64,000 nt of DNA from Thermomonospora echinospora (GCF_900108175.1 NZ_FNVO01000009.1:102744-166743); one strand, 5' to 3'; counted from the stretch's first letter, positions 27,800-44,928 are shown. Notes: generated by a model from the sequence alone, not told the origin. Numbers and translations are program-made.

Positions 27800-28660
27800 A
27801 TGACGATGAACGGCGGACGTGCACTGGTGCTGGGCGGCGGTGGCGTCGCCGGGATCGCCTGGGAGGCCGGTCTGCTCGCCGGTCTGGCCGAGCAGGGGGT
27901 GGACCTGACCGGCGCCGACCTGTTCGTGGGGACCTCGGCCGGGTCGGTGGTCGGCTCGTTCGCGGCGCACGGCGCCGACATGACCGAGGCGGTGCGGCGG
28001 ATGTCGGCCCGCGCCGAGGGCGACGGCCGGGGCACCGCCCCCGCCGACGTGGACCTGAACGTGGTGCTGCAGGCCTTCGCGATCCTCTACGACGCCTCCC
28101 TCGACCCGCAGGAGGCCCGCGCCAGGGTCGGCCGGATGGCGCTGGAGGCCGAGACCGAGGCCATGGCCGCCGTGCTGGAGGAGGTCGGCACCCGGCTGCC
28201 CAGCCAGGAGTGGCCCGACCGGCGCCTGCTGATCACCGGGGTGGACGTCGAGGACGGCTCGTTCGTCGTCTGGGACGGCTCCTCCAGCGTCCCGCTGGCG
28301 CTGGCGGTACGGGCGAGCTGCACGGTGCCCTGCGTCTTCCCGCCGGTCGCCATCGACGGCCGCCGCTACATGGACGGCGGCTGCCGCTCGGTCACCAACG
28401 CCGACCTGGCCAAGGGCGCCGCCGCCGTGGTCATCGTCGAGCCGATGGCGCACCTGACCCCGCGCGCCACCCTGGAAAAAGAGCTCGCCGAGCTGGGCGA
28501 CGCCCGCACCGTCGCCATCGGCCCCGACCAGGCCACCATGGAGACCTTCGGCGCCGACCTGCTCAGCCCCAAACTCTGGGGCCCCGCCTTCGACGCCGGC
28601 CTCCGGCAAGCCTCGGCCGTCACCGACGACGTCCGCAAGGCATGGGAGCCGTCCGTGTGA
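27800..28660 (+). CDS. Patatin-like phospholipase
   Basis: Shows the oxyanion hole ALVLGGGGVAG, the GTSAG nucleophile elbow and the catalytic Asp in DGG. Confidence 0.85.
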   Translation: MTMNGGRALVLGGGGVAGIAWEAGLLAGLAEQGVDLTGADLFVGTSAGSVVGSFAAHGADMTEAVRRMSARAEGDGRGTAPADVDLNVVLQAFAILYDASLDPQEARARVGRMALEAETEAMAAVLEEVGTRLPSQEWPDRRLLITGVDVEDGSFVVWDGSSSVPLALAVRASCTVPCVFPPVAIDGRRYMDGGCRSVTNADLAKGAAAVVIVEPMAHLTPRATLEKELAELGDARTVAIGPDQATMETFGADLLSPKLWGPAFDAGLRQASAVTDDVRKAWEPSV

Positions 28661-29548: not shown

Positions 29549-30075
29549 CGTCCCTCCAAACGGGTGTCCGCCGCGGACACGCCGGGTCAACGGCCACCGG
29601 CACGACGGCGGGCCGGGCACGGCTCCGCCCGCCATGCTGGGGCACCCGCCGCCACTGGTCAAGATCTTCAGGCCCGTCGATCCGGTCGCCCGGCCGACTC
29701 GGGGAACGCACCCTGGTCCGATGACCGGTTCCGGTCATGGACGGAAAAGGGAACCGAGATCCATCCGATCCCGTCGAATCACCCGTGCAGCAAGGAGACG
29801 GGAGGTCGCGGGCGGTACCGTTCGAATGCCCGGCTCAAGGCCGCCCGGAACGCGCCCCGGACAATTCGATTGGGCAACAACCAGACATATCTGTATCATT
29901 CGCCTCACGGTGTGCCGGGAAGCCTGGTCGGCAAGGACGACCGGGCTGTCCATCGGCCGGCAACACCGCCAGTCTTCCGGTCGTCCCCGCAAACGACCCG
30001 GTCACCGACCGGGTCGAGACGGCCACGGGTCCCCGCCACCAGGCGGGGGCGGACGCGGGGGAGGTCGGTTAGACC

Positions 30076-30729
30076 ATGGGCGAGTTCGTCGGGACGGTGT
30101 TCGCCTTCCCCACCGTGCTCTTCACCTTTTCGCTGCTGGTCGTCGTCGGCTACTGGGCGTTCGTGGTGCTGGGCGCCGCCGACCTGGACCTGCTGGACGG
30201 CGACGCCGAGGCCGGGGCCGCGGGCCTGGGCGGTTTCCTGGGCGCGCTGCGGCTGGGCGAGGTGCCGGTGACCGTCGCGCTCTCGCTGCTGATCGCCTTC
30301 TCCTGGTTCTTCAGTCTGGTCGGTGCCGTCGTGCTGGATCGTTTCGACCTCTCCTCGCCCCTGACGCTGGCCCTCGGGCTGCTGGCGCTGACCCTGGCCG
30401 TGGTGGCCGGCTGGCTGGTCACCTGCCTGGTGGTGATGCCGCTGCGCAAGGCCCTGCCGCAGGTCCGCGAGTCGTCCCGGCACGACTTCGTGGGCCGGAT
30501 GTGCGTGATCCGCACGTCCACGGTGGGGCCCGACTTCGGCCAGGCCGAGATCACCTCGCCGGACGGCTCGTCGGCCATCATCCAGGTCCGCCAGGAGACC
30601 CCCGATCCCCTGGCCGAGCCGCTCACCGTCGGCAGCAGCGCCCTGATCTTCGACTACGACACGGCCGGCGAGTTCTTCCGCGTCATGCCCTACGACGCCG
30701 CCCTGGATCCCGACCGCCCCTTGCCCTGA
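30076..30729 (+). CDS. NfeD-like / YqiJ-like membrane protein (N-terminal TM helices, C-terminal OB-fold beta domain)
   Basis: Several TM segments are followed by a soluble beta-rich C-terminus (ITSPDGSSAIIQVRQE...SALIFDYD). It lies directly upstream of a flotillin gene, which is the canonical NfeD-SPFH pairing. Confidence 0.65.
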   Translation: MGEFVGTVFAFPTVLFTFSLLVVVGYWAFVVLGAADLDLLDGDAEAGAAGLGGFLGALRLGEVPVTVALSLLIAFSWFFSLVGAVVLDRFDLSSPLTLALGLLALTLAVVAGWLVTCLVVMPLRKALPQVRESSRHDFVGRMCVIRTSTVGPDFGQAEITSPDGSSAIIQVRQETPDPLAEPLTVGSSALIFDYDTAGEFFRVMPYDAALDPDRPLP

Positions 30730-30746
30730 CCCGGGGCCGCCACCGC

Positions 30747-30838
30747 TGCGGCCCCACCGCTTCGACCTCGTTGTCCTGACCGCCCGTCGTTCCGCCTCGA
30801 CGCCCCGGCCGCCCCACCGTCCCGACCTCGTTGCCCTG
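30747..30838. repeat. Two ~30-bp direct repeats (CCCCACCG(c/t)(t/c)(t/c)CGACCTCGTTG(T/C)CCTGACC) with six CCTGA motifs across the 190-bp NfeD-flotillin spacer
   Basis: Read in the sequence. Confidence 0.7.
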
Positions 30839-30919
30839 ACCTCGTTGTTTCGACCGACCGTCGTCCTGAGTCCCCGCCGCCCTGACAGGACGCGACCTGA
30901 CCCCCCGAAGGGAGCGCTG

Positions 30920-33082
30920 ATGGAATCCATCACCCTGGGGCTCGGCGTGCTCATCGCCGTCGTCCTGCTGATCGCGCTCGGCCTGGTGATCATGACCAGC
31001 CGGCTGTTCCGCAAGGTGGAGCAGGGCAAGGCGCTGATCATCTCCAAGGTGCGCAAGGTGGACGTCACCTTCACCGGCGCGGTGGTGCTGCCGGTGCTGC
31101 ACAAGGCCGAGGTGATGGACATCTCGGTGAAGACCATCGAGATCGCCCGTACCGGCCGTGAGGGCCTGATCTGCAAGGACAACATCCGCGCCGACATCCG
31201 CATCACGTTCTTCGTACGGGTCAACAAGACCGTCGAGGACGTCATCAAGGTGGCACAGGCGATCGGCACCGAGCGGGCCAGCAGCCAGGAGACGCTGCAG
31301 GAACTGTTCAACGCCAAGTTCTCCGAGGCCCTCAAGACCGTCGGCAAGCACCTGGACTTCGTCGACCTGTACACCCGGCGCGAGGAGTTCCGCGACCACA
31401 TCATCCGGGTCATCGGCACCGACCTCAACGGCTACAGCCTGGAGGACGCGGCCATCGACTACCTGGAGCAGACCCCGCTGACCTCGCTGGACAAGTCCAA
31501 CATCCTGGACGCCCAGGGCATCCGCAAGATCACCGAGCTGACCGCGATCGAGCACGTGCGCACCAACGAGTTCCAGCGCAACGAGGAGAAGGAGATCACC
31601 CGCCAGAACGTCGACGCCCGGGAGGCCATCCTGGAGCTGCGGCGGCGGGAGGCCGACGCCGAGGCCAAGCAGCGGCGCGAGATCGAGACCGTCAAGGCCC
31701 GCGAGGAGGCCGAGATCGCCCGGGTGCAGGCCGAGGAGCGGCTGCGGGCGCAGACCGCCCACATCCGCACCGACGAGCAGCTCGGCATCCAGCACGAGAA
31801 CAAGGCCCGCGAGATCGCGGTGGCCGAGAAGAACCGCGAGCGGGTCCTCGCCGTCGAGTCCGAGCGGATCGAGAAGGACCGGCTGCTGGAGGTCATCGCC
31901 CGCGAGCGGGAGACCGAGCTGACGCGCATCGCCGCCGACAAGGAGGTCGAGGCCGAGAAGCGGGACATCGCCGAGGTCGTCCGGGAGCGGATCGCGGTCG
32001 AGAAGACCGTGGCCGAGCAGGAGGAGAACATCAAGCGGCTGCGCACGGTCGAGGAGGCCGAGCGGACCCGCCAGGCGCTGGTCATCCAGGCCGAGGCCGA
32101 GGCGCAGGAGGCGCTGGTCAAGGACATCAAGGCGGCCGAGGCCGCGGAGGCGGCGGCCAAGTTCAGGGCCCGCGAGGAGCTGGTGCTGGCCGAGGCCCGG
32201 CAGCAGGCCGCCGACCTCGACGCCCGCGCCAAGATCCGGCTGGCCGAGGGTGTGCAGGCCGAGGAGGCCGCCGCCGGGCTGGCCCAGGCGCAGGTCCGCG
32301 CCCGCAACGCCGAGATCGTCGAGCGGGAGGGCCTGATCGAGGCCCAGATCCGCGAGCGCAACGCCGCCGCGATCGAGAAGGAGGGCCTGGCCGAGGCCAC
32401 GGTCGAGCGCGAGAAGCGGGCCGTGGAGGCCGCCGCGCTGCGCGACCGGCTGCAGGCCGAGGCCGACGGCGAGAAGGACAAGGCGCTGGCCCAGGCCGAG
32501 GGCATCGCCGAGAAGCTCAAGGCCGAGGCGGCCGGCCTGACCGACAAGGCCGCGGCGATGGCCAAGCTGTCGGACGCCACCCGCGAGCACGAGGAGTACC
32601 GGCTGCGGCTGGAGGCCGAGAAGGACATCCGGCTGGCCGGCATCGACGTGCAGCGGCAGGTCGCCGAGCAGCAGGCCAACGTGCTGGCGGCCGGGCTCAC
32701 CAAGGCCGACATCAGCATCGTCGGCGGCGACACGGTGTTCTTCGACAAGCTGGTCGGCTCGGTCGCGCTCGGCAAGGGCATCGACCAGTTCGTCGGCAAC
32801 TCCGAGGTCACCCGTTCGCTGGCCGGCCCGTGGCTGGAGGGCAACGGCCGCTTCACCGAGGACCTGACCCGCGTGCTCGGCTCCATCGGCGCCGGCGACG
32901 TCCGCGACCTCACCCTGTCCGCCCTGCTGGCCAAGCTCATCAAGGCCGGCGGCCCCGACACCGACAAGCTGTCGGAGCTGCTGACCACCGCCCAGCGCCT
33001 CGGCCTGTCCGACGCCCCGGTCAACGCCCTGACCCCGCAGCCGGCCGTCTCCACGGTCAAGTCCGTCAACGGCGACCACTGA
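30920..33082 (+). CDS. Flotillin-family protein (SPFH/band-7 domain; YqiK/FloT-like) with very long Glu/Ala/Arg-rich coiled-coil C-terminal region
   Basis: Has an N-terminal TM helix, an SPFH core and EA-rich heptads. At 720 aa it is longer than the usual 500-550. RBS GAAGGGAG lies before the ATG at 30920. Confidence 0.9.
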   Translation: MESITLGLGVLIAVVLLIALGLVIMTSRLFRKVEQGKALIISKVRKVDVTFTGAVVLPVLHKAEVMDISVKTIEIARTGREGLICKDNIRADIRITFFVRVNKTVEDVIKVAQAIGTERASSQETLQELFNAKFSEALKTVGKHLDFVDLYTRREEFRDHIIRVIGTDLNGYSLEDAAIDYLEQTPLTSLDKSNILDAQGIRKITELTAIEHVRTNEFQRNEEKEITRQNVDAREAILELRRREADAEAKQRREIETVKAREEAEIARVQAEERLRAQTAHIRTDEQLGIQHENKAREIAVAEKNRERVLAVESERIEKDRLLEVIARERETELTRIAADKEVEAEKRDIAEVVRERIAVEKTVAEQEENIKRLRTVEEAERTRQALVIQAEAEAQEALVKDIKAAEAAEAAAKFRAREELVLAEARQQAADLDARAKIRLAEGVQAEEAAAGLAQAQVRARNAEIVEREGLIEAQIRERNAAAIEKEGLAEATVEREKRAVEAAALRDRLQAEADGEKDKALAQAEGIAEKLKAEAAGLTDKAAAMAKLSDATREHEEYRLRLEAEKDIRLAGIDVQRQVAEQQANVLAAGLTKADISIVGGDTVFFDKLVGSVALGKGIDQFVGNSEVTRSLAGPWLEGNGRFTEDLTRVLGSIGAGDVRDLTLSALLAKLIKAGGPDTDKLSELLTTAQRLGLSDAPVNALTPQPAVSTVKSVNGDH

Positions 33083-33261
33083 CCCGTAGCGGGGTGTCGC
33101 GGGCGGCCGCCCGCCCGCGACACCCCGGCCCCGACCGGCCACCCGTGCACACCGGCACGGCGCGACGGAACGGTCCGGCGGATGGCCGTTCCGGAACGAC
33201 TCGTGAACGGGCGGTCGCCGGTTGCGGTGGGCATGGCCGCCATACGCCACTAGGAGGATTC

Positions 33262-36200
33262 GTGACGGAGATCGCCACCGACGCCGCCGGGCATGCGGCC
33301 GTGCCCGGAGACGACGGCAGTGGCGGGCAGGCGGGCGGCCCGGGGATGGACAGCGGCACCTACGAGGTGCTGCGGGCGCGGCTGACCGAGCAGGCGGCCG
33401 AGCTGGCGCGGCGGGCCGAGACGCTCAACGCGCGCCGGGTGGAGGTCTTCGGCAGCGCCGAGCTGCGACTGCTGGGCACCGAGCGGATCCGTACCGGCAA
33501 CAACTGCGTGCCCCGTGACATCGTCCCGGTCACCGGGGCCGTCGTCCCCGCGGACGGGGAGCCCGGTCACCAGTCGGGGCTGATGCTGTTCGGCTACAAC
33601 GTGTTCATCGGGCTCAAGCCGGAGACGACGATCGACGACGTCTTCTCCCTGCATCGCTTCACCCGTGACGGCGATGCGTTCCGGTTCGATGACGTGGCCG
33701 CCGACGAGGCGCCGGGGCTGCTGCGCGACCCCCGCTTCGAGAAGGACTTCGCCGACCTCTACCGCTACTACCGCGACACCCGGCTGATGCAGTTGCGCCG
33801 GCTGGACGGCAAGCTGCTGGCGGTGTTCCAGACCGGGGCGCGCACCACCGACATCCGGGTGCTGCGCTGGCAGATCCACCCGGACGGCACCGCCGAGTAC
33901 CTCGACGCCCAGGGCGAACGCGACCACGTCTTCCCGCCCTCGCACGACTTCACGTGGGTGCAGACCACCCGCGAGCAGCACGTCATGGGCCGCCACCCGC
34001 ACATCTCCATCGAGGACGAGCTGTTCGTGGAGACGGTCGGCGGCGACCTCACCGTCAAGATCGAGAACAACACCGAGTCCGGCGAGGGCGTCTACAGCGA
34101 GCCGGTCGACGAGCCGCTGCAGAGCCTGGCCGACGCCGATGTCCACTACGCCCGGATCGGGTCGCTGATCTGCCTGCGCGTCCGCCCGTACAACGAGACC
34201 GAATGGCGGCACCTGATCTTCAACACCCGCACCAAGGACGTGGTGCGGCTGGACGGCATCGGCCAGGCGTGCCAGCGGCTGCCGGAGGACCACGGGCTGA
34301 TCTTCCCCGGGGGCTACTACCTGACCACCGGGGCCGCCAGGACGTTCGACACCGACGTGGCCGGCCTGGAGTTCGAGCGCGTCATCCGTTCCACCAACGG
34401 CGAGGACGTGCTGTACGTCTTCCACGCCCGCGCCGAGGGCCGCACCCTGCTGCTGCCCTACAACGTGATCCGCAAGCAGGTCGCCGCGCCGCTGCCGTGC
34501 CACGGCTACTCGCTGTTCGACGACGGCACGCTGGTGGTGTTCCGCGCCACGTCCGACGAACCCACCCGCGTCCACCCGATGCAGGTGTGGCAGACCCCGT
34601 ACCTGTCGGACGCCTACGCCGCCGCGCAGCCCGTCGGCACCGGCCCGCTGGAGCGGGTCGGCAACGCCGAGCTGGTACGGGGCATCTCCGACTGCCTGTC
34701 GGTGTCGCGGATGGTCGGCGAGATGGCCCCGTCCACCGCCGTCTACGAGGGCCTGATCTCCGCCTGCGCCCGGGTGTTCGACCACTACCACTGGCTGGGC
34801 GAGGCCGAGCTGGGCGACCTGCGGGCGCCGCTGACGGCCGTCCGGGCCGCGGCCGAGCAGGTGCTGGAGGAGTTCGAGAACGTCCAGGCGCTCACCGCGC
34901 AGGCCGCCGAGGCGGTGAACGAGGCCGCCACCAAGATCGCCTCGCTGGTGCGGACGGTACGGGGCGAGGCGCCCAAGACCGCCGACGCCTGGGTGCAGCA
35001 GCTCGCCGCGCTGCGCCGCGAACAGGGCCACCTGGTCACGCTGCGCGAGCTGCGCTACGTCGACACCGAACGGCTCGACCGCCTCGACGCCGACCTGGAC
35101 ACCGAGCTGGCGGGCGCCGGACGGCGCGCGGTGGCGTTCCTCCAGGGCGAGGACGCGTTCACCGGCTACCACGCCGACGTGGAACACCTGGTCGCCGAGG
35201 CCGCCGAGATCACCACGGTCGCGGCCGCGAAGCCGCTCGGCGAACGGCTGGCCGAGCGGTCGGCCGCACTGGAGACGGTGACCGAGGTCGTCGGCTCCCT
35301 CGACATCGCCGACGCCACCGTGCGCACCCGGATCCTGGAGCGCATCGGCGAGGTCCTCGGCGGCGTCAACCGGGCCCGCGCCACCCTGGAGGCCCGTCGC
35401 CGGGAGCTGCTGGCCACCGAGGGGCGGGCCGCGTTCGCCGCCGAGTTCGCGCTGCTCGGCCAGGCCGTCGCCGGGGCGCTGGCGGTCGCCGACACCCCCG
35501 AGCGCTGCGACGAGCAGCTCGGCCGGCTGATGCTGCGGCTGGAGGACCTGGAAACCCGGTTCGGCGACTTCGACGACTTCCTGGCCGAGCTGTCGGCCAA
35601 GCGCGAGGACGTCTACGAGGCGTTCTCCTCGCGCCGGCAGTCGCTGCTGGACGAGCGGGCCCGCCGCGCCGACCGGCTGGCCGCCTCCGCCGACCGCACC
35701 CTGGCCGGGGTACGCCGCCGGGTGGCGAACCTGGCGTCCCTGGACGAGATCAACACCTACTTCGCCGCCGACCCGATGGTGGCCAAGCTCCGCCAGGTCG
35801 CCGAGGAGCTACGGACGCTGGGCGACGCCGTACGCGCCGAGGAGCTGGAGGGCCGGGTCAAGGCCGCCCGCCAGGAGGCCGGGCGTTCCCTGCGCGACCG
35901 CGCCGACCTGTTCACCGACGGCGGCGAGAGCATCCGCCTCGGCCGGCACCGCTTCGCGGTCAACACCCAGCCGATCGACCTCACCCTCGTCCCGCACTCC
36001 GGCGGCATGGCGTACGCCGTCACCGGCACCGACTACCGCTCCCCCGTCGAGGACGAAGGGTTCACCGGCACCCGCGCGTACTGGGACCAGCCGCTGGTGT
36101 CGGAGTCCCCCGAGGTCTACCGGGCCGAGCACCTGGCCGCGTCCATCCTCGCCATGGCCGAGAACGGCGCCGGGGGCCTCACGCTGGAGTCCCTGCACGA

Positions 36201-38496
36201 AGCCGCCGTCACCGAAGACGCCCTCCTGACGGCCGTCCGGAAGGTCGCCGAGTCGCGCTATGACGAGGGCTACGAACGCGGCGTCCACGACCACGACGCC
36301 ACGCTGATCCTCCAGGCTCTGCTGCGGCTGCACTCGGCTGCCGGCCTGCTGCGTTACCCCCCGTCCGCCCGCGCCGCCGCCCGGCTGTTCTGGGCGTACG
36401 GCACGGACGAGGCCGCCCGCACCCGCTGGACCCGCCGGGCCGCCTCCCTGGCCCGCGCCCGCGCCGCCTTCGGCTCCGCCCCCGCCATCACCGAACTCCA
36501 CGACGAGCTGACCCAGGCCATCGCCGTCTTCATGAACCGGCACGACCTCAATGTCACGCCGTCGGAGTCCTCGTCCGGGTCCGCCGACCTCTCCGGGGGA
36601 CGACCGGACGGGCTCCGCTCCAACGACCCCGCATCACCACCGGCCGACCCGGCCGACCCGGCCGACCCGGCCGGCTCGTTCGGCTCGTTCGGCTCAGGGA
36701 TGGCCTCTGGATCCGCGGTGCAGGGGCGGGGCGCTCGGCCTGACCCGTTGGCCGGGGAGTACCTGTTCGAGGAGCTGGCCGGGAACGTTGGCGGTTTCGT
36801 CACGGGGGCGGGTGCCCGCAGGCTGCTGGAGCTGTTCCGCCGGGCGCTGGGGGGCGGCGGCTCGCACTCGCTGACCGCCTTCGAGGACGACCTGCGCGCG
36901 CTGGGCGACGACCTCGCCGCCCGACAGCAGCTCGTGGAGGCGTGGCTGCGCGCCTTCGCCTCGTCCCAGGGCGAGGCGGAGGGCTTCGAGATGGACCTGC
37001 CCGAGGCCGTCGCGATCGAGCTGTGCGGCGCCGCCGTTCCGCGTCACGACTCGTCCGCCACGTTGAGCGCCACCGTCGAGGGCCTGCTGGGCGCCCACCC
37101 GCGCATCACCGATCGGCGGCTGGACCTGCGCATCGACGAGTTCCTCGCCCGCACCCGCGCGTTCCGTACCGAACGCGTCCCGGCCTACCGGGCGTACCAG
37201 AAGCGGCGCGGCGAGCTGGTCGATCGGGAACGCGCCCGGCTGCGGCTGGAGGAGTACCGGCCCAAGGTGATGAGCGCGTTCGTCCGCAACCGGCTGCTGG
37301 ACGAGGTCTACCTACCGCTGATCGGCGACAACCTGGCCAAGCAGCTCGGGGCGTCCGGCGACGCCAAGCGCACCGACCAGATGGGCCTGCTGCTGCTGAT
37401 CTCCCCGCCCGGCTACGGCAAGACGACGCTGATGGAGTACGTGGCCAGCCGCCTCGGCCTGGTGTTCGTCAAGATCAACGGCCCCGCCCTGGGCCACTCG
37501 GTCACCTCGCTGGACCCGGCCGAGGCGCCCAGCGCCACCGCCCGCCAGGAGATCGAGAAGATCTCCTTCGCCCTGGAGTGCGGCAACAACACGCTGCTCT
37601 ACCTGGACGACATCCAGCACACCAACCCCGAGCTGCTGCAGAAGTTCATCTCGCTGTGCGACGCCCAGCGCCGCATGGAGGGCGTCTGGAACGGCCGCAC
37701 CCGCACCTACGACCTGCGCGGCAAGCGCTTCGCGGTGTGCATGGCGGGCAACCCGTACACCGAGGCGGGCAAGAGGTTCCGCATCCCCGACATGCTCGCC
37801 AACCGGGCCGACGTGTGGAACCTGGGCGACGTCCTGTCCGGCAAGGACGAGCTGTTCGCCCTCAGCTACATCGAGAACGCCCTCACCTCCAACCCCGTCC
37901 TGGCGCCGCTGTCCACCCGCGACCGCGGCGACCTGGAGCTCCTGGTCCGCCTGGCCAAGGGCGACGACTCGGTCCGCCCCGACCGGCTCTCCCACCCCTA
38001 CTCCCAGGTCGAGCTGGACCAGATGGTGTCCGTGCTGCGCAAGCTGCTGCGCGTCCAGCAGATCGTGCTGGCGGCCAACCGGGCCTACATCGCCTCGGCC
38101 GCCCAGTCCGACGACTCCCGCACCGAGCCCCCGTTCCAGCTCCAGGGCTCCTACCGCAACATGAACAAACTGGCCGAACGCATCGTCCCCGTCATGAACG
38201 ACACCGAGCTGGAATCCCTCATCGACGACCACTACCTAGGCGAATCCCAAACCCTGGCCGCCGGCGCCGAAGCCAACCTCCTCAAACTCGCCGAACTACG
38301 CGGCACCCTCACCACCGCCCAGGCCACCCGCTGGCACGACGTCAAACAGTCCTACCTCCGCGCCAAGGCCCTCGGCGGCCAGGACGACGACGCCGTCACC
38401 CGAGCCGTCGGCGCCCTCGGCCTCCTCGCCGACCGGGTAGGCGACATAGAACAGGCCATCCACCGCGCCACCACGCGCCCCACCCCGGCACCCTGA
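33262..38496 (+). CDS. Giant 1744-aa protein with N-terminal beta-rich domain, central coiled coil and C-terminal MoxR/AAA_5-like AAA+ ATPase module
   Basis: RBS AGGAGGA + 5 nt lies before the GTG at 33262. Walker A is LLLISPPGYGKTTL, Walker B is TLLYLDDIQH and the sensor region is VCMAGNPYTEAGKRFRIPDMLANRADVW. A Pro/Asp-rich linker (PADPADPADPAGSFGSFGSG) precedes the ATPase. Confidence 0.8.
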   Translation: MTEIATDAAGHAAVPGDDGSGGQAGGPGMDSGTYEVLRARLTEQAAELARRAETLNARRVEVFGSAELRLLGTERIRTGNNCVPRDIVPVTGAVVPADGEPGHQSGLMLFGYNVFIGLKPETTIDDVFSLHRFTRDGDAFRFDDVAADEAPGLLRDPRFEKDFADLYRYYRDTRLMQLRRLDGKLLAVFQTGARTTDIRVLRWQIHPDGTAEYLDAQGERDHVFPPSHDFTWVQTTREQHVMGRHPHISIEDELFVETVGGDLTVKIENNTESGEGVYSEPVDEPLQSLADADVHYARIGSLICLRVRPYNETEWRHLIFNTRTKDVVRLDGIGQACQRLPEDHGLIFPGGYYLTTGAARTFDTDVAGLEFERVIRSTNGEDVLYVFHARAEGRTLLLPYNVIRKQVAAPLPCHGYSLFDDGTLVVFRATSDEPTRVHPMQVWQTPYLSDAYAAAQPVGTGPLERVGNAELVRGISDCLSVSRMVGEMAPSTAVYEGLISACARVFDHYHWLGEAELGDLRAPLTAVRAAAEQVLEEFENVQALTAQAAEAVNEAATKIASLVRTVRGEAPKTADAWVQQLAALRREQGHLVTLRELRYVDTERLDRLDADLDTELAGAGRRAVAFLQGEDAFTGYHADVEHLVAEAAEITTVAAAKPLGERLAERSAALETVTEVVGSLDIADATVRTRILERIGEVLGGVNRARATLEARRRELLATEGRAAFAAEFALLGQAVAGALAVADTPERCDEQLGRLMLRLEDLETRFGDFDDFLAELSAKREDVYEAFSSRRQSLLDERARRADRLAASADRTLAGVRRRVANLASLDEINTYFAADPMVAKLRQVAEELRTLGDAVRAEELEGRVKAARQEAGRSLRDRADLFTDGGESIRLGRHRFAVNTQPIDLTLVPHSGGMAYAVTGTDYRSPVEDEGFTGTRAYWDQPLVSESPEVYRAEHLAASILAMAENGAGGLTLESLHEAAVTEDALLTAVRKVAESRYDEGYERGVHDHDATLILQALLRLHSAAGLLRYPPSARAAARLFWAYGTDEAARTRWTRRAASLARARAAFGSAPAITELHDELTQAIAVFMNRHDLNVTPSESSSGSADLSGGRPDGLRSNDPASPPADPADPADPAGSFGSFGSGMASGSAVQGRGARPDPLAGEYLFEELAGNVGGFVTGAGARRLLELFRRALGGGGSHSLTAFEDDLRALGDDLAARQQLVEAWLRAFASSQGEAEGFEMDLPEAVAIELCGAAVPRHDSSATLSATVEGLLGAHPRITDRRLDLRIDEFLARTRAFRTERVPAYRAYQKRRGELVDRERARLRLEEYRPKVMSAFVRNRLLDEVYLPLIGDNLAKQLGASGDAKRTDQMGLLLLISPPGYGKTTLMEYVASRLGLVFVKINGPALGHSVTSLDPAEAPSATARQEIEKISFALECGNNTLLYLDDIQHTNPELLQKFISLCDAQRRMEGVWNGRTRTYDLRGKRFAVCMAGNPYTEAGKRFRIPDMLANRADVWNLGDVLSGKDELFALSYIENALTSNPVLAPLSTRDRGDLELLVRLAKGDDSVRPDRLSHPYSQVELDQMVSVLRKLLRVQQIVLAANRAYIASAAQSDDSRTEPPFQLQGSYRNMNKLAERIVPVMNDTELESLIDDHYLGESQTLAAGAEANLLKLAELRGTLTTAQATRWHDVKQSYLRAKALGGQDDDAVTRAVGALGLLADRVGDIEQAIHRATTRPTPAP

Positions 38497-38672
38497 CCGC
38501 CAGAACCTACAGCCCTCTGCGATTTTCAAGCCCTCCTCGCCCTTAAAACTGCACTATCCTGCAATTTCGTCCATATCTGTAATTATGGATGACCGAATAC
38601 AGTTCGGAACTCATGGACAGCAGGTCGCCATTCCCCTAGATTTGCATCTCGGACTTCTGAGGGTGGCCGACC

Positions 38673-39392
38673 ATGAAGATCTTCTCCACGGAGGGGCGAG
38701 GGATCTCCGAGGACGATGTTCCCGGTGCGCTCGCAGAGCGCGGAGTGCTCTACTTCCGCAATGGCGATCTGGGATCTGTGCGATCCCACGTCTTCGACTG
38801 GGGAAGGCCGTACGATCATCCGCATCAGAGCGCGCCCGGAATCACGCTGATCCGCGCCCGGCACACCCGGCCGCCGGCCGGGTTGAGCGGATTTACCAGG
38901 GACCGGCTGGCGCTCCACACCGATCGCGCGACCTGCGCCGAACCACCGGCGGTGGTCGCGACCCTGGTCCTGGCCGCCCCGCGGGCCGGAGGTCAGGCAC
39001 TTCTCGCGGATTCGGCGCGGGTGCTGACCGCCTGGTCCCGGCGGCGAAGGCTCTCCACCGCCCGGAGATCGGCCTTTCTGGAAACCAGGAAGGGACGGAC
39101 CCTACGGCCGCTCATCGACTCCGCACCGACGGGCGGGGTACGGATTCGTTTTCGCGATGACGGCATCGCCCGTCCGGCGGCCATGGGGCCGGCCGGTGAG
39201 GAATTCATCGGCGAGCTCAAAAGGCTGTGTTCGCGACCCGTGGTGCTGGACCTCGGCCCAGGCGAGGGATATCTGATCGACAACTATCGCTACCTGCACG
39301 GACGGCGGTCGTTCGTCGGAGAGCGCACCGTGGTCCGGTTCCTGGCGACGCCAGGCCCCGACCACACGATCCCCTTTGGTTTCGATGGCTAG
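38673..39392 (+). CDS. TauD/TfdA-like Fe(II)/2-oxoglutarate dioxygenase-fold protein
   Basis: LALHTDRATCAEPP is the HxD...P motif 1 and DNYRYLHGRRSF is the DNR...H motif 2. RBS GAGGGTGG is present. The gene is preceded by an AT-rich tract. Its GC3 is clearly lower than that of neighbouring genes. Confidence 0.6.
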   Translation: MKIFSTEGRGISEDDVPGALAERGVLYFRNGDLGSVRSHVFDWGRPYDHPHQSAPGITLIRARHTRPPAGLSGFTRDRLALHTDRATCAEPPAVVATLVLAAPRAGGQALLADSARVLTAWSRRRRLSTARRSAFLETRKGRTLRPLIDSAPTGGVRIRFRDDGIARPAAMGPAGEEFIGELKRLCSRPVVLDLGPGEGYLIDNYRYLHGRRSFVGERTVVRFLATPGPDHTIPFGFDG

Positions 39393-40395
39393 GCGGCCGG
39401 TCGGGCGCGGTTCCCGGCAGAGCCCGCGCGCTCGGCTCGTCCAACGGCTCGCCGCGTTGCCCCCGGCGACGACGCCCGGTTTCTCCACCGGCATACGGGA
39501 GGTCGTCGAGAGCCTTTCCGACCCGGAGGCACAGCTTGCGGACGTGCTGCGCAGCACCCGGCATCCCACCGACGTGCGGTTCGCGGCCCTGTACGGCTGG
39601 CTGCTCAGGCTCCGGCGGGAGGAAAGGTACGCCGAGTACGAATCCGTGCTGAGGCAGTATGGTCACGAGTTCGAGCAAGAGCCCTATGTCTACACGTTCC
39701 ACGCGATCGTCGCGCGCAACAGAGGAGACGCCAGTAGCCTGAGAAGCGCGGTCGAGTACTCCCGGCGCGCGGCCGAGCTGATGCCCGATGTGGCCGGGGT
39801 CGTGCACCAGCTCGCGGCCTTTCTGATCGAGTATCTCGAACGCTCCGACTCCGTCGTCGAAGCCGAGCTTCGGGAGGCGGAACGATCCGTGGACCAGGCG
39901 ATAGCGCTGACACACGGGCAGATCGGCCACTATTTCGAGACCAGAGCCCGCATACTCGCGATCCGGGGAGACTTCGGCGCCGCCCGGGCCGCCGTCAACC
40001 AGGCCATAGAGCTGGAGCCGCGGACCACCCGGGACTACCAGCGGAGGCTGACGCAGTACCAGACCACCCGAATCCGCATCGAGCTGCTGCAACAGCGCGC
40101 GTACTGGCGGCGGCAGCAGGAGGACAATCGCCGCGAACTGACCGATTTCAAAGCACAGCAGTTGCAACTGCTCGGCCTGTTGGCCGCGGTGGTGGCCTTC
40201 ATCGCGACCACGGGAAACCTCGCCGCCAGCGCCAGATGGCCGGACAGCATCCGCCTCATCGAAGGCATGGCCGGGTCCATCATCATCGTCTTCGCGTCGT
40301 TCACCCTGGCAAGTTCGAAGTCGGTATGGCGAGTCCTGTTCATGTACCTGGTGGGTGGGGTACTGCTGGTCGTGCCGTATCTAGTCGAAGGGTGA
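39385..40395 (+). CDS. Hypothetical protein with helical, repeat-like soluble N-domain and 2-3 C-terminal TM helices
   Basis: The start overlaps the stop of the upstream gene (ATGGCTAG). The C-terminus LLGLLAAVVAFIATTGNLAA...IIIVFASFTLA...VLFMYLVGGVLLVVPYLV is hydrophobic. Confidence 0.55.
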   Translation: MARRPVGRGSRQSPRARLVQRLAALPPATTPGFSTGIREVVESLSDPEAQLADVLRSTRHPTDVRFAALYGWLLRLRREERYAEYESVLRQYGHEFEQEPYVYTFHAIVARNRGDASSLRSAVEYSRRAAELMPDVAGVVHQLAAFLIEYLERSDSVVEAELREAERSVDQAIALTHGQIGHYFETRARILAIRGDFGAARAAVNQAIELEPRTTRDYQRRLTQYQTTRIRIELLQQRAYWRRQQEDNRRELTDFKAQQLQLLGLLAAVVAFIATTGNLAASARWPDSIRLIEGMAGSIIIVFASFTLASSKSVWRVLFMYLVGGVLLVVPYLVEG

Positions 40396-40400
40396 CAGGT

Positions 40401-41219
40401 GTGAAGCTCGTTGATTCGGCAGGAGCGGCCGGCGCATCAGATCGGCTCTCCGAGGACAGATTCGGAATGTCCGGAAATTGCGCCTGGGTCATCGACGGCG
40501 CATCGGATTTCCGGAACGAGCGGAATCTGCCCGCCGTCTCGAACGTCCACTGGCTCGTGGATCGTCTGCAGGGCGCCCTGCAGACGCGCGGCGCCGACGG
40601 CACCGTCGCCTCGGGCACCCTCCTGCTGACCGAGATACAGGCCGAGATCGTCGCTGAACTGGCCCGCCACGACCTGCGGGAGATGCAACAGCATCCCTGC
40701 TGCTCCCTGACCCTGCTCGTGGTGCACGAAGACGTCCTGGAGATCGTCCGGGTCGGAGACGCGGTCGGTGTCCTGTGCGGTGACTCGCTGGAGCTGGAGA
40801 TCAGCACCGGGTTCTTCGACGCGCGTGAGGCCGCCGCGGTCGAGCAGGCGCGAGCCCAGGACCTGACGATGGACGAGATCACCTCGGCGATGTACCGGCG
40901 GCGTTCGGAGTACATCCGCGGCATCAACGGCGAGTCGGTCTTCTCCGGCCATCCGGACGGGAACCTCTTCGCGCATTCCCTGCTGGTCCCTCGTCGGCGC
41001 GGAGCGGGCTTCGTCGTCCTGCTGTGCACGGACGGCCTGGCCAGAGCCGTGACGGAATACCGGCTCTTCGCCGACTGGCCTGCGCTGCTCAACGCCTGCC
41101 TGGCCAAGGGCGTGGATGCAGTGATCACCGAAATGCGCGCCTTCGAGGACGCGGCCGAGTCCGTGGCGGGCAAATTCAAGAAATCCGACGATGTGGCGGC
41201 CGTGCTGCTCCAGGTTTGA
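40401..41219 (+). CDS. PP2C-like (PPM-fold) phosphatase-like protein, possibly divergent or inactive
   Basis: A GTG lies 6 bp after the upstream stop. PPM-like blocks WVIDGASD, RVGDAVGVLCGDS and LLCTDGLARAV are present, but several canonical metal-binding Asp and Gly residues are substituted. Confidence 0.5.
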   Translation: MKLVDSAGAAGASDRLSEDRFGMSGNCAWVIDGASDFRNERNLPAVSNVHWLVDRLQGALQTRGADGTVASGTLLLTEIQAEIVAELARHDLREMQQHPCCSLTLLVVHEDVLEIVRVGDAVGVLCGDSLELEISTGFFDAREAAAVEQARAQDLTMDEITSAMYRRRSEYIRGINGESVFSGHPDGNLFAHSLLVPRRRGAGFVVLLCTDGLARAVTEYRLFADWPALLNACLAKGVDAVITEMRAFEDAAESVAGKFKKSDDVAAVLLQV

Positions 41220-41344
41220 CCGGCATCGGCCACGGCCGTCCGGCACCGGACGGCGCACGAGACCATCACTGCACCCGGTACCGCGAACCGGGGGCCGGCC
41301 CTGCGCGGCGAACAGGAGCGAACATGTCGACCACCGACCATCCC

Positions 41345-41779
41345 CCCTTCCTGGTCGAACGGAACCCCGGCTACTTCGAGTACCAGCTTCCCGTCTCGGT
41401 GAAGCTGATCATCGACTACGGCGGAAAGGTCCCGCTGCTCAAGAACGAGCGCGAGGAGTGGGAACTACCCGGCGGAAAGCTCGAAGTGGGGGAACGGCCG
41501 GACGAGTGCGTCGCACGCGAGGTCGAGGAGGAGTTGGGGCTGACCGTGAAGGTGGAGGATCTGGTCGACACCTGGGTCTATGAGATCACTCCACTACGCC
41601 ACGTCTTTATCGTCACCTACGGAGCCCACTACACGGGCTTCCAGACCCCACGCAGCTCCAATGAGCACAAGGCCCTCGGCCTGTTCTCCCCCGGGGAGGT
41701 CGGCGGCCTCACCATGCCCGAGCAGTACAAGACGTCCATCAAGCGCTGGTACGCCATGACGGGCAAGCCGACCGCGTGA
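41345..41779 (+). CDS. NUDIX hydrolase
   Basis: Has a perfect Nudix box GGKLEVGERPDECVAREVEEELGL (Gx5Ex7REVxEELGL). RBS AGGAG lies before the ATG at 41345. Confidence 0.85.
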   Translation, partial: PFLVERNPGYFEYQLPVSVKLIIDYGGKVPLLKNEREEWELPGGKLEVGERPDECVAREVEEELGLTVKVEDLVDTWVYEITPLRHVFIVTYGAHYTGFQTPRSSNEHKALGLFSPGEVGGLTMPEQYKTSIKRWYAMTGKPTA

Positions 41780-41851
41780 CTCCGGGCACCCTCCCCCAGC
41801 AGCCGGTCACCTCATGACATCTGCGCGGGCTTCCCGGACGACCCATGCGGG

Positions 41852-42679
41852 CTACGGCTTGCGGCCTATTCCGCCGACGATGAGTCGGTCCCATGCCGTC
41901 GGCTCCCGGTCCGGTGGGGTGTCCGGGTGCCATTCGACCAGCGGCACGATGCCCGGGTCGACCATTTCCAGTCCGGTGAAGAAGGACTCGATCTCGTGCT
42001 GCTCGCGCCACCGCCCGCGGCCGAAGGACGCCTGCAGCATCTGCTCGATCTGCTGCGACTCCTCGTTGTGCTCGGTGCGGAAGTGGGTGATGAACAGGTG
42101 GCTGCCGGAGGGGACCGCCTCGCGCAGGGTCGCCACGATGCCGGCCGGGTCCTCCTCGTCCTCCAGGTGATGCAGGACCGCGCACAGGATGACGCCGACG
42201 GGCCGGTCGAAGTCGATCAGCTTCCGCGTCGCGGAGTCGTCCAGGATCCCGCGCGGATCACGGGCGTCGGCCTGGATCACCGCCGTGCGATCGTTCTCGT
42301 CCAGCAGGGCCCGGCCGTGCGCGAGCACGATGGGGTCGCTGTCGACGTAGACCACCCGGGACTCGGGAGCGTGCCGCTGGGCGACCTGGTGCACGTTCTC
42401 GGCCGTGGGCAGGCCGCTGCCGATGTCGATGAACTGCCGGATCCCCGCCTGCCGGACGAGGTACCGCACGGCGCGCCCGAGCACCCTGCGATTCTCGACG
42501 GCGATCGTCACCGCACCGGGCAACTGTTCCTTGATCATGTCGCCCACGGCGCGGTCGGAGGCGAAGTTGTCCTTCCCACCGATCATGTAGTCGTAGACAC
42601 GGGCGATGCTGGGCACGGTCGGGTCGATCCCCACAGGCACCCGCCCGGCACCGGCCGACGGCTCCCCGATTCCTTCCAC
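41852..42679 (-). CDS. SAM-dependent methyltransferase of the actinobacterial Methyltransf_19/DUF574 type
   Basis: The N-terminus PSIARVYDYMIGGKDNFASDR is diagnostic of this family. RBS GGGAG lies before the GTG at 42679. Confidence 0.8.
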   Translation of the reverse strand: MEGIGEPSAGAGRVPVGIDPTVPSIARVYDYMIGGKDNFASDRAVGDMIKEQLPGAVTIAVENRRVLGRAVRYLVRQAGIRQFIDIGSGLPTAENVHQVAQRHAPESRVVYVDSDPIVLAHGRALLDENDRTAVIQADARDPRGILDDSATRKLIDFDRPVGVILCAVLHHLEDEEDPAGIVATLREAVPSGSHLFITHFRTEHNEESQQIEQMLQASFGRGRWREQHEIESFFTGLEMVDPGIVPLVEWHPDTPPDREPTAWDRLIVGGIGRKP

Positions 42680-42933
42680 AGGTCACTCCCGACTGCCGAA
42701 GCCCCACCGAGCGCCCGCCGTACCGTACGACGCCGGTGCAGCCGATCTTAAGGCCGGACCTCTCAGGACTTCGTACAGTTCGCCGGATCGGCCACGCGAC
42801 AGCCGGGACAGACTTCCCGCAGCACGGCGCCGAGCCGAGGCGCCGAGCCGAAAGGCTCCGGCCCCTCCACCGGGTAAGGCGGTCGGCGCGATGCCGGGCA
42901 TTGCCGGTACGTCCCTGGCCCTCGGCCTGGAAG

Positions 42934-43598
42934 TCACCGGGAGCGGAGGAGTTCGCCGACCACGCGGCGGACCTTGCCGGCGGCGTCGCGGTCGCCCAGA
43001 CGCAGCGCCGTGTTCGCGGCCATCAGGACCGCGTCGATCTGGAAGGCGGCGAGTTCCACGTCCAGGTCGGCGACCTCACCGGAGTCCACCGCCTGCCGCA
43101 ACTCTTCGGCGAGGAGGGCGACCCACCCCTGATGCTGATGCGCCAGTCGGTCGCGGACAGGGCCGGGGCGGCTGTCGAAGTCGGCGAGGTTCGCGGCCCA
43201 GAAGCAGCCTCCCGGAAACAGTGGTGCTTCGGCATAGCCGATCCAGTGCTCCACCAGGGCTCGCAGCCGGGCGGTGCCGGCGGCGGCGTCCAGCGCGGGC
43301 AGCACGACCGCGTCGGCGAAGAGCCGTTCCGCGGTCTCTATGACGGCCAGGTGCAGGTTCTCCCTGGTCCTGAAGAGGGTCTGGATGCCGCTCTTGCTGA
43401 TCCCCAGGTCGGTGGCCAGCCGGCCCAGGCTGAGGCCGTTGAGCCCTTCCAGGGATGCCAGGTCGACGGCGTGGCGGGTGATGGCCTGCCGGGATTCGGC
43501 GCCCCGTAGCCGTCGCCGGTCGCCTACGGCCTGGTCCGTCCGGCCGGTCGCGCGGAGGCCGTTGTCGGGGGCCGGCCGGCGCATGCGTTCGCTCATCG
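42934..43598 (-). CDS. TetR-family transcriptional regulator
   Basis: The N-terminal HTH is LASLEGLNGLSLGRLATDLGISKSGIQTLF. The ATG is MEPMSERM. The 5' extension in the track ORF is rejected. Confidence 0.85.
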
Positions 43599-43621
43599 GC
43601 TCCATTGTGCCAGTCTTGCAT

Positions 43622-43645
43622 AAAAGTACGAACGATCGTACGTTT
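43622..43645. promoter_or_regulatory. Imperfect 24-bp palindrome AAAAGTACGAACGATCGTACGTTT in the TetR / SnoaL divergent intergenic region (candidate TetR operator)
   Basis: 20 of 24 positions are self-complementary. It is located between the divergent start codons. Confidence 0.4.
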
Positions 43646-43674
43646 AACTCCTCGCGACACGGAGGGATGAGCTG

Positions 43675-44130
43675 ATGGACGGCGATCGCATGTTCGAGCT
43701 GGCACAGGCGCTGGCCGAGGCCAAGAGCCGCCAGGACGTTCCCGCGGCGATGCGGCTCCTCCACCGGGAGATGGAGCTGGAGGTCCCGGCCTTCGGGACG
43801 ACGGTCCGCGGCCCGGCGGAGAACGAGGCGGCGCTCACCTGGTTCTTCAAGGCGTTCCCGGACTACGAGGTCGCACTGGACGGGCACGCCGACAACGGCG
43901 AGACGCTGGTCTGCTGGGGGACGGTGCGGATGACCATGCACGCCGCCGGTCTCGGCCTCGCCCCCAACGGAAGGCGCGCCGAACTGCCGGTGTTCATCCA
44001 GTTCGGCTTCAGGGACGGCCTGATCGCCGCCGAGCGTTTCCTCTTCGACCTGTCGTCCCTGTGCGCCCAGTCGGGCGTCTCCACGGACGAGGCCCGGGAA
44101 AGGCTCTTCAGGCGGAGGGCCGTGGCGTGA
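43675..44130 (+). CDS. SnoaL-like / NTF2-fold protein (ester-cyclase-like)
   Basis: Size is 151 aa with an NTF2-like pattern. RBS GGAGGGA is present. It is divergent from the TetR gene. Confidence 0.7.
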   Translation: MDGDRMFELAQALAEAKSRQDVPAAMRLLHREMELEVPAFGTTVRGPAENEAALTWFFKAFPDYEVALDGHADNGETLVCWGTVRMTMHAAGLGLAPNGRRAELPVFIQFGFRDGLIAAERFLFDLSSLCAQSGVSTDEARERLFRRRAVA

Positions 44131-44645: not shown

Positions 44646-44724
44646 CAACAAGCCATCACAGCCCCGCCGTATCGGCCGGTCCCCCTGAGGTCCTCCCAGG
44701 CGATCAGCCGTGCCGAACGGCGGG

Positions 44725-44928
44725 TCAACTGATGTCGTAACAACCGCCCTTGATCCGCTGAGCGAAGGCACTCCACTCACTCTGCCGGAACGCCAAGATG
44801 CCACCCTCCGGATCCTTGCTGTCGCGCACGACGACAGCCTGCTCGGCGCTGGCGATCTCTACGCAGTTCTGCCCGCCGTTATCGCTGCGGCGGGACTTGC
44901 GCCAGACGACGTTCGGCGGGGTAATCAT
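44725..44928 (-). CDS. DUF397-domain protein (second, downstream copy)
   Basis: VWRKSRRSDNGGQNCVEIA...VRDSKDPEGGILAF is the DUF397 signature. The long 5' extension in the track ORF is rejected. Confidence 0.75.
   Translation of the reverse strand: MITPPNVVWRKSRRSDNGGQNCVEIASAEQAVVVRDSKDPEGGILAFRQSEWSAFAQRIKGGCYDIS

Follow-up and report, generated by a model that had tools for sequence, protein, structure and literature searches.

A conserved gene unit linking an NfeD-like protein, a long flotillin and a giant AAA+ ATPase in Thermomonospora echinospora

Within a 64,000-nucleotide window of the Thermomonospora echinospora genome (72% GC), positions 30076-38496 hold three open reading frames on the + strand that encode a 217-aa NfeD-like protein, a 720-aa flotillin and a 1744-aa soluble ATPase. 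Their third-position GC content of 0.93-0.98 is that of real genes in a genome of this composition. All three frames lie where a preliminary description had placed them, and the spacers have the lengths expected from it (190 and 179 bp). Sigma-70-like sites predicted by a consensus scan number two in the region against 0.2 expected. The features of the locus are the following.

29871..29899, + strand: sigma-70-like promoter match TGGGCA-17-TATCAT, ~175 nt 5′ of the NfeD-like gene (consensus scan only)
30076..30729, + strand: YqiJ/YuaF-type short NfeD-like protein, 217 aa, PA3730/BacC orthologue; third-position GC 0.96
30738..30855, + strand: direct repeats of the first spacer, two copies and one partial copy of a 44-nt unit, with TTGYCCTGACC three times
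30920..33082, + strand: long YqiK-type flotillin, 720 aa, PA3729/BacD/PaFlo3 orthologue
33090..33127, + strand: perfect 17-bp inverted repeat with a 4-nt loop, starting 8 nt past the flotillin stop codon
33262..38496, + strand: giant soluble ATPase, 1744 aa, annotated "DNA repair ATPase", PA3728/PA14_16190/BacE orthologue
33349..34596, + strand: N-terminal helix (aa 31-63) and beta-rich domain (aa 69-444) within DUF3686, from an AlphaFold2 model
35152..35406, + strand: DUF7902 (aa 631-715), inside the helical middle region, from Pfam
35800..36561, + strand: conserved middle region (aa ~847-1100), from aligned sequences of Actinomycetota, Gamma- and Betaproteobacteria
36568..36741, + strand: low-complexity linker, SSSGS...PADPADPAD...GSFGSFGSG
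37291..38103, + strand: AAA+ module of the giant ATPase, from an AlphaFold2 model (pLDDT 84.4)

The NfeD-like protein has transmembrane (TM) segments at residues 3-40, 60-90 and 91-125, followed by an acidic linker and a soluble C-terminal beta domain. The Pfam NfeD model (PF01957) matches only 3 of 25 members of its family, with a best E-value of 0.021, and YqiJ_N (PF21001) scores 15.5 bits against the protein, below the cutoff of 23. Homology to YqiJ is supported by profile comparison, in which hhalign matched the family profile to that of E. coli YqiJ with a probability of 82.8% (E 9e-6); identity to PA3730 is 30% (E 8e-20). Behind this gene lie the direct repeats that had been noticed in the first spacer. 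The two copies of the 44-nt unit (30738-30781 and 30798-30841) are 80% identical, and within the window a 19-nt core is found nowhere but in this spacer (2 exact matches against 0.05 expected). The corresponding spacer of a close relative (L083) measures only 63 nt, and ~125 nt of the window spacer has no counterpart in the alignment. A TTGYCCTGACC-type motif also ends the NfeD-like gene itself (30721-30731), which suggests local duplication of the 3′ end of the gene. Aligned in this way, the repeats are a species-specific expansion and not a conserved element.

The flotillin begins at an ATG with the Shine-Dalgarno-like sequence GAAGGGAG on its 5′ side and is built of one N-terminal TM segment, an SPFH domain, an A/E/R-rich coiled coil of ~380 aa and a C-terminal domain. 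No Pfam entry, including Band_7, matched it at E <= 0.01, and the NCBIfam FloT equivalog model matched weakly (23.7 bits, cutoff 700). Its family profile aligned with that of E. coli YqiK over 413 columns (hhalign probability 99.9%, E 1.5e-31), and the protein is 50% identical to PA3729 over 638 aa. Judged from these alignments, this is a divergent flotillin and not a FloT equivalog, with flotillin homology shown by the YqiK profile comparison. The long coiled coil that had been described agrees with the composition of residues ~213-591 (21% A, 19% E, 12% R), which looks coiled-coil-like. Set beside E. coli YqiK (553 aa) the protein is over-long, but not within its own family, where ~700 aa is normal (median 698 aa). 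The inverted repeat that follows the gene folds at -41.6 kcal/mol (z = -3.3 versus shuffles). A strong hairpin (z < -2) is similarly placed in 22 of the 43 related loci with a flotillin-ATPase gap of at least 90 nt, and in low-GC gammaproteobacteria it takes the canonical terminator form with a T-run. We consider it a candidate terminator, attenuator or RNA-stability hairpin.

For the giant gene, the GTG start at 33262 is preceded by a Shine-Dalgarno AGGAGG at 33252-33257 and agrees both with the gene call and with an identical GTGACGGAG start in L083; the alternative NCBI start at ATG 33346 gives 1716 aa. The product could not at first be assigned to a characterized family, but it is described in Pfam: it comprises DUF3686 (E 1e-223, 743 bits, cutoff 25), DUF7902 (PF25472; E 1.4e-32, 112 bits, cutoff 26) and an AAA domain, with AAA (PF00004) and AAA_5 both above their gathering scores (AAA_5 27.1 bits, cutoff 22). 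More than 6,700 homologues were found, and identity to the P. aeruginosa orthologue is 47% over 1727 aa. The protein has no convincing TM segment, and a Pfam profile search detected no protease, VWA, DNA-binding or nuclease domain. AlphaFold2 gives the N-domain (pLDDT 82.9, pTM 0.78) the beta-rich fold that had been anticipated, at aa 69-444, and the model looks propeller-like, as a divergent beta-propeller within DUF3686 would. Of the ~500 aa of coiled coil also claimed for this protein, only part survives: residues 450-600 are modeled as long helices and a crude composition test finds coiled-coil-like sequence in patches, but aa 847-1100 show no obvious coiled coil. This last region carries the invariant motifs GRHRF-VN-Q--DLT, TGTD and RY-EGYE-G-HDHDA and has no Pfam or PDB sequence match. 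The linker after it aligns poorly with the P. aeruginosa orthologue and is therefore variable and lineage-specific.

Every short motif first read from the giant protein was recovered (PADPADPAD at aa 1127, GSFGSFGSG at 1138, GYGKTT at 1384, LLYLDD at 1445 and GNPY at 1496). The AAA+ module contains a Walker A motif GPPGYGKTT (K1387), a Walker B motif LLYLDD (D1449, D1450), sensor-1 N1497 in GNPY, a candidate arginine finger R1515 (NRAD) and a helical lid, as well as a predicted pre-sensor-1 beta-hairpin seen only in the AlphaFold2 model. Across 52 sequences (27 from Actinomycetota, 24 from Proteobacteria) there is no variation at the Walker A, Walker B, sensor-1 and arginine positions. Walker B ends in DD and not the usual DE, so catalytic competence is assumed. 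The best structural matches of the modeled module are the MoxR-type proteins CbbQ and NorQ, and Foldseek leaves NorQ, RuvB, Cdc48 and FtsH unseparated; the placement nearest MoxR-type ATPases is thus ambiguous. Features pointing to the MoxR family (CbbQ, NorQ, RavA) are the AAA_5 match, beside that to AAA, and the predicted hairpin. MoxR proteins are ~250-500 aa long and are paired with a VWA-domain protein. The giant ATPase, by contrast, has 1744 aa, its AAA+ module being preceded by ~1,340 residues and followed by a helical tail, a DD Walker B and no VWA partner, either in the three proteins or among the conserved neighbor genes. The sole VWA protein in the window is encoded 23 kb away (8175-9989).

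Neighborhoods were compared at 80 related loci; these belong to Actinomycetota, Myxococcota, Gamma- and Betaproteobacteria, apart from one MAG labeled Clostridia. The flotillin gene lies immediately 5′ of the giant gene on the same strand in 78/78 informative loci, and an NfeD-like gene precedes the flotillin gene in 70 of 74 informative loci. The three-gene unit proposed at the outset is therefore genuine in several phyla, and a giant gene found mostly without flotillin or NfeD neighbors is decisively not the pattern. All-against-all clustering of flanking ORFs found no fourth conserved gene. Divergence of the flotillin and of the NfeD-like protein each correlates with that of the ATPase at r = 0.93, which is consistent with inheritance as a unit and largely reflects shared phylogeny. 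Compared at the protein level, the three genes are a widely conserved membrane-scaffold operon, orthologous to bacC-bacD-bacE, that travels together across phyla.

In Pseudomonas aeruginosa, the orthologues of the NfeD-like protein (30% identity), the flotillin (50%) and the ATPase (47%) keep the gene order and the common strand within bacABCDEF (PA3732-PA3727), which reads DUF2170 - PspA - 213 aa - 688 aa - 1746 aa - PLD. In Gammaproteobacteria, the operon that holds the three genes also encodes a PspA-family protein and the DUF2170 partner of that protein, and several have a PLD-family gene downstream; the full form (CesT/Tir-like DUF2170 and PspA upstream, PLD downstream) was seen at only ~10 loci, all gammaproteobacterial. 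Neither tblastn against the window nor Pfam searches of the neighboring genes found DUF2170 (BacA), PspA (BacB) or PLD (BacF). The window thus holds an abbreviated form, and with no PspA homologue detected, a PspA link in Thermomonospora is conjecture. Relative to bacABCDEF, the window has longer spacers and the lineage-specific linker in the ATPase. Actinomycetota are not known to have sigma-54, so regulation must differ as well. RT-PCR across every junction from bacA to bacF established that bacABCDEF is co-transcribed, and the Bac proteins rise jointly 6- to 13-fold in a bacA mutant (PMC10948618). PA3728-PA3732 are jointly up-regulated in phage-infected cells (PMC12041424), and osmotic shock induces the PspA-like PA3731 (PMC2587700). 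Deletion of paFlo3, the flotillin orthologue, in PA14 reduced biofilm by only ~20%, and in the conditions used no stress phenotype was seen (PMC13086221).

The unit most likely functions as an envelope-stress machine, with the ATPase acting to remodel the flotillin scaffold or its clients, a mechanism that we infer. The earlier suggestion of a role in membrane stress fits the PspA linkage in Proteobacteria. The three-TM NfeD-like protein would anchor or nucleate the single-pass flotillin. The flotillin would oligomerize via the SPFH domain and the long coiled coil, giving a cage or patch at the cytoplasmic membrane face. The soluble ATPase would form a ring through its MoxR-like AAA+ module, and its beta-propeller and helical arm may grip the flotillin assembly or proteins within it. 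ATP would then be spent to remodel, open or recycle the assembly during envelope stress, by analogy with Vps4 acting on ESCRT-III/PspA-type polymers and FtsH inside HflK/C cages. The hairpin behind the flotillin gene probably holds the level of ATPase below that of the scaffold. Taken as a whole, this reading (a conserved membrane module, spread horizontally and present here in its actinobacterial short form, whose giant ATPase remodels a flotillin assembly under envelope stress) has in our estimate about an even chance of being right.

A neighboring account directs the ATPase at clients and not at the scaffold: a flotillin cage would confine damaged or unassembled membrane proteins that the ATPase extracts, unfolds or assembles, as with FtsH in HflK/C or the MoxR chaperones. 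The modeled fold, closest to the maturation ATPases CbbQ and NorQ, points this way, and the predicted propeller could be a client-binding platform. S. aureus FloA-NfeD stabilizes unfolded proteins according to a passage of PMC11222466, and chaperone-like assembly of membrane complexes is proposed in the relevant part of Ravi et al. (PMC11237479). No client gene is conserved beside the module in the flanking-ORF clustering, however, the VWA adaptor usual for MoxR is absent among the conserved genes and no protease domain was detected; we consider client-directed quality control rather unlikely. More improbable is an anti-phage or abortive-infection system, a possibility raised in the preliminary description, in which the module would act as a sensor of infection at the membrane, and the response would be executed by the ATPase, joined in Proteobacteria by the PLD enzyme. 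The distribution is patchy and marked by horizontal transfer (PMC13086221), some copies sit on megaplasmids, and the downstream PLD-family gene and the induction of PA3728-PA3732 by phage (PMC12041424) would suit defense; yet the same induction is also shown by a general, Psp-type envelope-stress response. PADLOC 2.0 returned no significant match for the three proteins (the best, IetA, is P-loop only, E 0.004), no homologue occurs among 50,697 phage records, and the 88 genes flanking 21 of the loci have housekeeping roles and show no defense-island signal, so that the suggestion found no support. Those 88 genes gave just generic kinase and sigma-54-activator matches, two proteins each. Defense genes evolve fast, whereas the ATPase is conserved at 45-50% across phyla over 1,700 aa.

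The database name, a DNA repair ATPase, is inherited from Pfam and NCBI and would be in keeping with the P. aeruginosa recJ gene three genes downstream and with weak RuvB matches, but those are limited to the Walker A region and generic to AAA+ proteins. Neither Pfam nor PDB sequence searches revealed a DNA-binding or nuclease domain, the invariant partners belong to the membrane and a literature search found no mention of DUF3686, which together make a repair function very improbable. Adjacency of unrelated genes by chance, which spacers of ~180-190 bp and a strong hairpin that could mark separate transcription units might suggest, is hardly credible: the order is kept across phyla while the flanks vary, and the P. 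aeruginosa orthologues are co-transcribed (PMC10948618). With that order unbroken in the informative loci and no other neighbor conserved, chance adjacency is refuted.

Returning to remodeling under envelope stress, a more specific form of the proposal is possible, if on balance doubtful: the DUF3686 ATPase may be a dedicated ATP-driven enzyme for disassembly or remodeling of flotillin cages, its propeller docking on the extended flotillin C-terminus and its HDHD-containing middle region perhaps adding a second activity. That region could also carry an activity outside the remodeling model altogether. If true, the ATPase would be the first regulator of an SPFH microdomain scaffold to depend on energy, in a role comparable to that of Vps4 for ESCRT-III.

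A coupling of flotillin, NfeD-like protein and giant ATPase had seemed undescribed, but it is already known from comparative genomics and from P. aeruginosa, and the locus adds a member. The passages of Ravi et al. 2024 (preprint 2020; PMC11237479) on this system present the operon in silico as a PspA-associated partner system in sub-membrane dynamics, and bacC-bacD-bacE (PMC10948618) is its orthologue. They describe abbreviated forms without PspA (flotillin, YqiJ/YuaF TM protein, AAA+ ATPase) as "more widely distributed". The window locus fits this description; the account, being in silico, gives no mechanism in those passages, which also omit the conserved middle region added here along with the tentative placement of the AAA+ module nearest MoxR-type ATPases. 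The same core of a three-TM NfeD-like protein followed by flotillin is found in E. coli YqiJ-YqiK and B. subtilis YuaF-FloT (SPFH2/NfeD2; PMC2636767). Unlike the window locus, these pairs have no ATPase partner, and the window flotillin is ~150-200 aa longer than YqiK/FloT, mostly in coiled coil and C-terminal sequence. SPFH scaffolds with AAA+ machines are established in HflK/C-FtsH and in prohibitin with the m-AAA protease. In these systems the scaffold and the AAA+ enzyme work in functional partnership (PMC13220708). FtsH, of the classical AAA clade, is a protease anchored in the membrane, whereas the window ATPase, whose complex with a flotillin is hypothetical, is soluble, free of a protease domain and putatively MoxR-like.

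The NfeD-like gene, the flotillin gene and the giant ATPase gene form an operon that is both real and conserved. The preliminary description had placed three same-strand genes at 30076-38496, and this is borne out by the ORFs themselves and by their GC3 of 0.93-0.98, the codon-position pattern of real genes, in a window of 72% GC. The sequence motifs, the spacers of 190 and 179 bp and the direct repeats in the first spacer that it reported were all found. The giant protein is 100% identical to the T. echinospora protein named "DNA repair ATPase".

30076-30729, + strand, NfeD-like protein gene, ORF of 217 aa
30920-33082, + strand, flotillin gene, ORF of 720 aa
33262-38496, + strand, giant ATPase gene, ORF of 1744 aa

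The NCBI annotation starts the giant gene at an ATG at 33346. The upstream GTG start is better supported because AGGAGG lies 4 nt upstream of it and a close relative has an identical Shine-Dalgarno sequence and GTGACGGAG start. Residues 1-29 of the resulting protein are predicted to be disordered in an AlphaFold2 model of aa 1-600.

Scanning one genome for each species confirmed 568 proteins related to the giant protein, and the best 80 loci were examined together with their 10-kb flanks; Actinomycetota, Myxococcota, Gamma- and Betaproteobacteria are represented among them, as is one MAG labelled Clostridia. In 78 of these 80 loci the gene immediately upstream, on the same strand, encodes a flotillin homologue; the other two loci break off about 100 bp ahead of the giant gene. 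Of the 74 loci informative for the NfeD-like gene, 70 carry it. The giant gene is therefore not one that mostly occurs without such neighbours, and the proposed linkage is conserved. Four Streptomyces loci (L034, L036, L037 and L043) keep the flotillin and ATPase genes and truly lack the NfeD-like gene; when a replacement NfeD was sought there, the upstream ORFs were dissimilar to the NfeD-like family. Clustering of all flanking ORFs in the best 80 loci revealed no further conserved gene, which, together with the conserved order, excludes chance adjacency of the three genes. L034 has another ORF of roughly 1,700 aa (15105-20225) immediately downstream, and this ORF lacks a Pfam match.

The surroundings of the module are more varied. 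A patatin-like phospholipase gene lies upstream (27800-28660, + strand), and in L083 and L084, two close Thermomonospora-like relatives, a patatin gene (1681-2532) immediately precedes the module in the same orientation. None of the 80 other loci has it, so its adjacency is probably lineage synteny only; considered as a possible functional analogue of the proteobacterial PLD enzyme, it was rejected as a part of the module. Downstream of the operon, 38500-48900 has a GC of 0.66-0.70 versus 0.72-0.75 and a weaker codon-position bias; this stretch, whose genes include TauD-like, PP2C-like, methyltransferase and TetR-family members, may have been acquired more recently. Next, on the minus strand (48927-55841), come a hybrid histidine kinase of 1477 aa, which combines at least six HAMP repeats with GAF, HisKA/HATPase and receiver domains, and then an 811-aa ANTAR-GAF-SpoIIE phosphatase. 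The gene for a 604-aa protein with SBP_bac_11 solute-binding and VWA domains (8175-9989, + strand) lies 23 kb away from the AAA+ gene, to which it is not linked. The 88 flanking proteins scanned from 21 non-actinobacterial loci include two with matches to sigma-54 activator (PspF-like) models and two with matches to TelA.

Neither the NfeD-like protein nor the flotillin matches Pfam at normal thresholds or the PDB in sequence searches with family profiles. The NfeD-like protein has three hydrophobic segments followed by a soluble C-terminal beta domain. It scores 15.5 bits with the YqiJ_N HMM (cutoff 23), and a profile of 25 family members aligns to E. coli YqiJ with a probability of 82.8% (E 9e-6). 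In the flotillin, a single TM segment at the N-terminus is accompanied by an A/E/R-rich coil of about 380 residues, and the family profile aligns to E. coli YqiK with a probability of 99.9% (E 1.5e-31). The 720-aa protein is a divergent YqiK-type flotillin. It had been called over-long; the 720 aa stand, but about 700 aa is the norm for this subfamily.

The giant protein, which the preliminary description could not assign to a characterised family, is already covered by Pfam:

aa 47-510, DUF3686 (E 1e-223)
aa 631-715, DUF7902
aa 1377-1500, AAA/AAA_5

DUF3686 proteins make up 785 clusters at 50% identity (E <= 0.001). The domain sits at the N-terminus, and apparently full-length carriers have about 1,500-2,000 residues. 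Megaplasmids occasionally carry the giant gene, as in 13 of 72,556 plasmid records. Between Actinomycetota and Gammaproteobacteria, identity is 45-50% across about 1,700 residues. The protein has no convincing TM segment, and a PDB profile search with the whole ATPase gave matches confined to the Walker-A region. For aa 1-600 (pLDDT 82.9), AlphaFold2 predicts a helix that leads into a beta-rich domain (aa 69-444), with long helices after it; for aa 1162-1744 (pLDDT 84.4), it predicts a helical/beta pre-domain, AAA+ core, lid and helical tail. In the core, the Walker B helix and the sensor-1 strand are predicted to flank a hairpin. "MoxR-like" is the best description of this module, although it falls short of proof because Foldseek cannot distinguish NorQ, RuvB, Cdc48 and FtsH as matches to the model. 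All 52 sequences compared (27 from Actinomycetota, 24 from Proteobacteria) share Walker A, Walker B, the sensor-1 Asn and a candidate arginine finger without variation, and in every one Walker B (LLYLDD in the window, 37594-37611) carries DD rather than the usual DE. Strong conservation extends to a middle region, aa ~847-1100 (35800-36561), with no Pfam or PDB sequence match. Its invariant motifs GRHRF-VN-Q--DLT (including RHRF), TGTD and RY-EGYE-G-HDHDA (including HDHD) could form a metal-binding or catalytic site.

In the gap between the NfeD-like and flotillin genes, the repeats (30738-30855) duplicate a motif from the 3' end of the NfeD-like gene. The same gap is 63 nt long and free of repeats in L083, the closest available relative, so a conserved regulatory element was rejected; the repeats are a T. 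echinospora-specific expansion of about 125 nt. In the gap between the flotillin and ATPase genes, a perfect 17-bp hairpin (33090-33127) starts 8 nt past the flotillin stop codon. Of the 43 related loci whose gap is at least 90 nt, 22 have a hairpin at this position (z < -2), and in the low-GC gammaproteobacteria (L063, L054 and L068) it has the form of a canonical terminator, complete with T-run. Equivalent hairpins in about half of the loci with a sizeable gap suggest an attenuation step that lies between the scaffold genes and the gene for the enzyme, and the hairpin may serve as a conserved attenuator by which the ratio of scaffold to enzyme is set.

The preliminary description knew of no described function for a coupling of a membrane scaffold to an AAA+ protein; the coupling is already on record. 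Ravi et al. 2024 (mSystems; preprint 2020; PMC11237479) describe an operon of CesT/Tir-like (DUF2170), PspA, a band-7/flotillin protein, an AAA+ ATPase with a propeller, a YqiJ/YuaF-type 3-TM protein and sometimes a PLD enzyme, and give the wider distribution to abbreviated forms that lack PspA. We found the long form (DUF2170/PspA) in about 10 gammaproteobacterial loci. The P. aeruginosa order is DUF2170, PspA_IM30, proteins of 213, 688 and 1746 aa and PLDc_2 (PA3732 to PA3727), followed by yaeQ, recJ and lasB. Wallart et al. 2024 (PMC10948618) showed by RT-PCR that these six genes, bacA-F, are co-transcribed; in a bacA mutant, the products of the five genes downstream increase 6- to 13-fold. 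PA3731 is induced by osmotic shock and has been tied to biofilm formation, swarming and virulence (Macé et al. 2008, PMC2587700). PA3728-PA3732 rise jointly during phage infection (PMC12041424), and single deletion of the flotillin paFlo3 has only a slight biofilm effect (PMC13086221). Searching full texts for DUF3686 gave no paper, nothing on BacE, the P. aeruginosa orthologue of the giant protein, was found beyond Wallart 2024, and no study of the giant ATPase's activity was found.

Orthology and operon membership are established, as is an envelope-stress context in Proteobacteria. We propose that the NfeD-like protein would build a scaffold with the flotillin on the cytoplasmic face, and that the soluble giant ATPase, assembled as a ring and bound via its propeller and helical arm, would spend ATP to remodel the scaffold or its clients. 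Remodelling of the scaffold itself has, in our judgment, an even chance of being correct; remodelling of the clients is possible but rather doubtful. Both versions face the weak flotillin knockout phenotype, the lack of a detected PspA within the window and the atypical Walker B, and both leave the conserved middle region out of account.

A defence machine had also been suggested. This role is improbable: PADLOC was negative on the three proteins, as were PADLOC and Pfam on the 88 flanking proteins from 21 loci, whose neighbours are housekeeping genes; tblastn found no phage copies of the giant gene; and the giant protein's conservation is unusually high. Less probable still is a DNA repair ATPase, the database name, for which there is the inherited name, a generic AAA+ similarity to RuvB and nothing else; the label is unsupported.

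Scaffold-directed remodelling, if the ATPase does act in this way, would mean that SPFH microdomains are actively regulated rather than passive. One flotillin subfamily is always encoded beside its own 1,700-residue ATPase, and the module is thus a handle on the role of bacterial flotillins and their NfeD partners. The preliminary observation holds and its interpretation was partly right, but the family and the coupling were already recorded. With the coupling in the literature, the locus itself is no discovery; this kind of operon is known yet biochemically uncharacterised, and the role of the giant ATPase keeps it moderately interesting. Relative to the long form of Ravi et al. and to P. aeruginosa, in which the operon has an effect on both biofilm formation and virulence, the window carries the module without a detected PspA, and its proper annotation is a bacCDE-type flotillin module.
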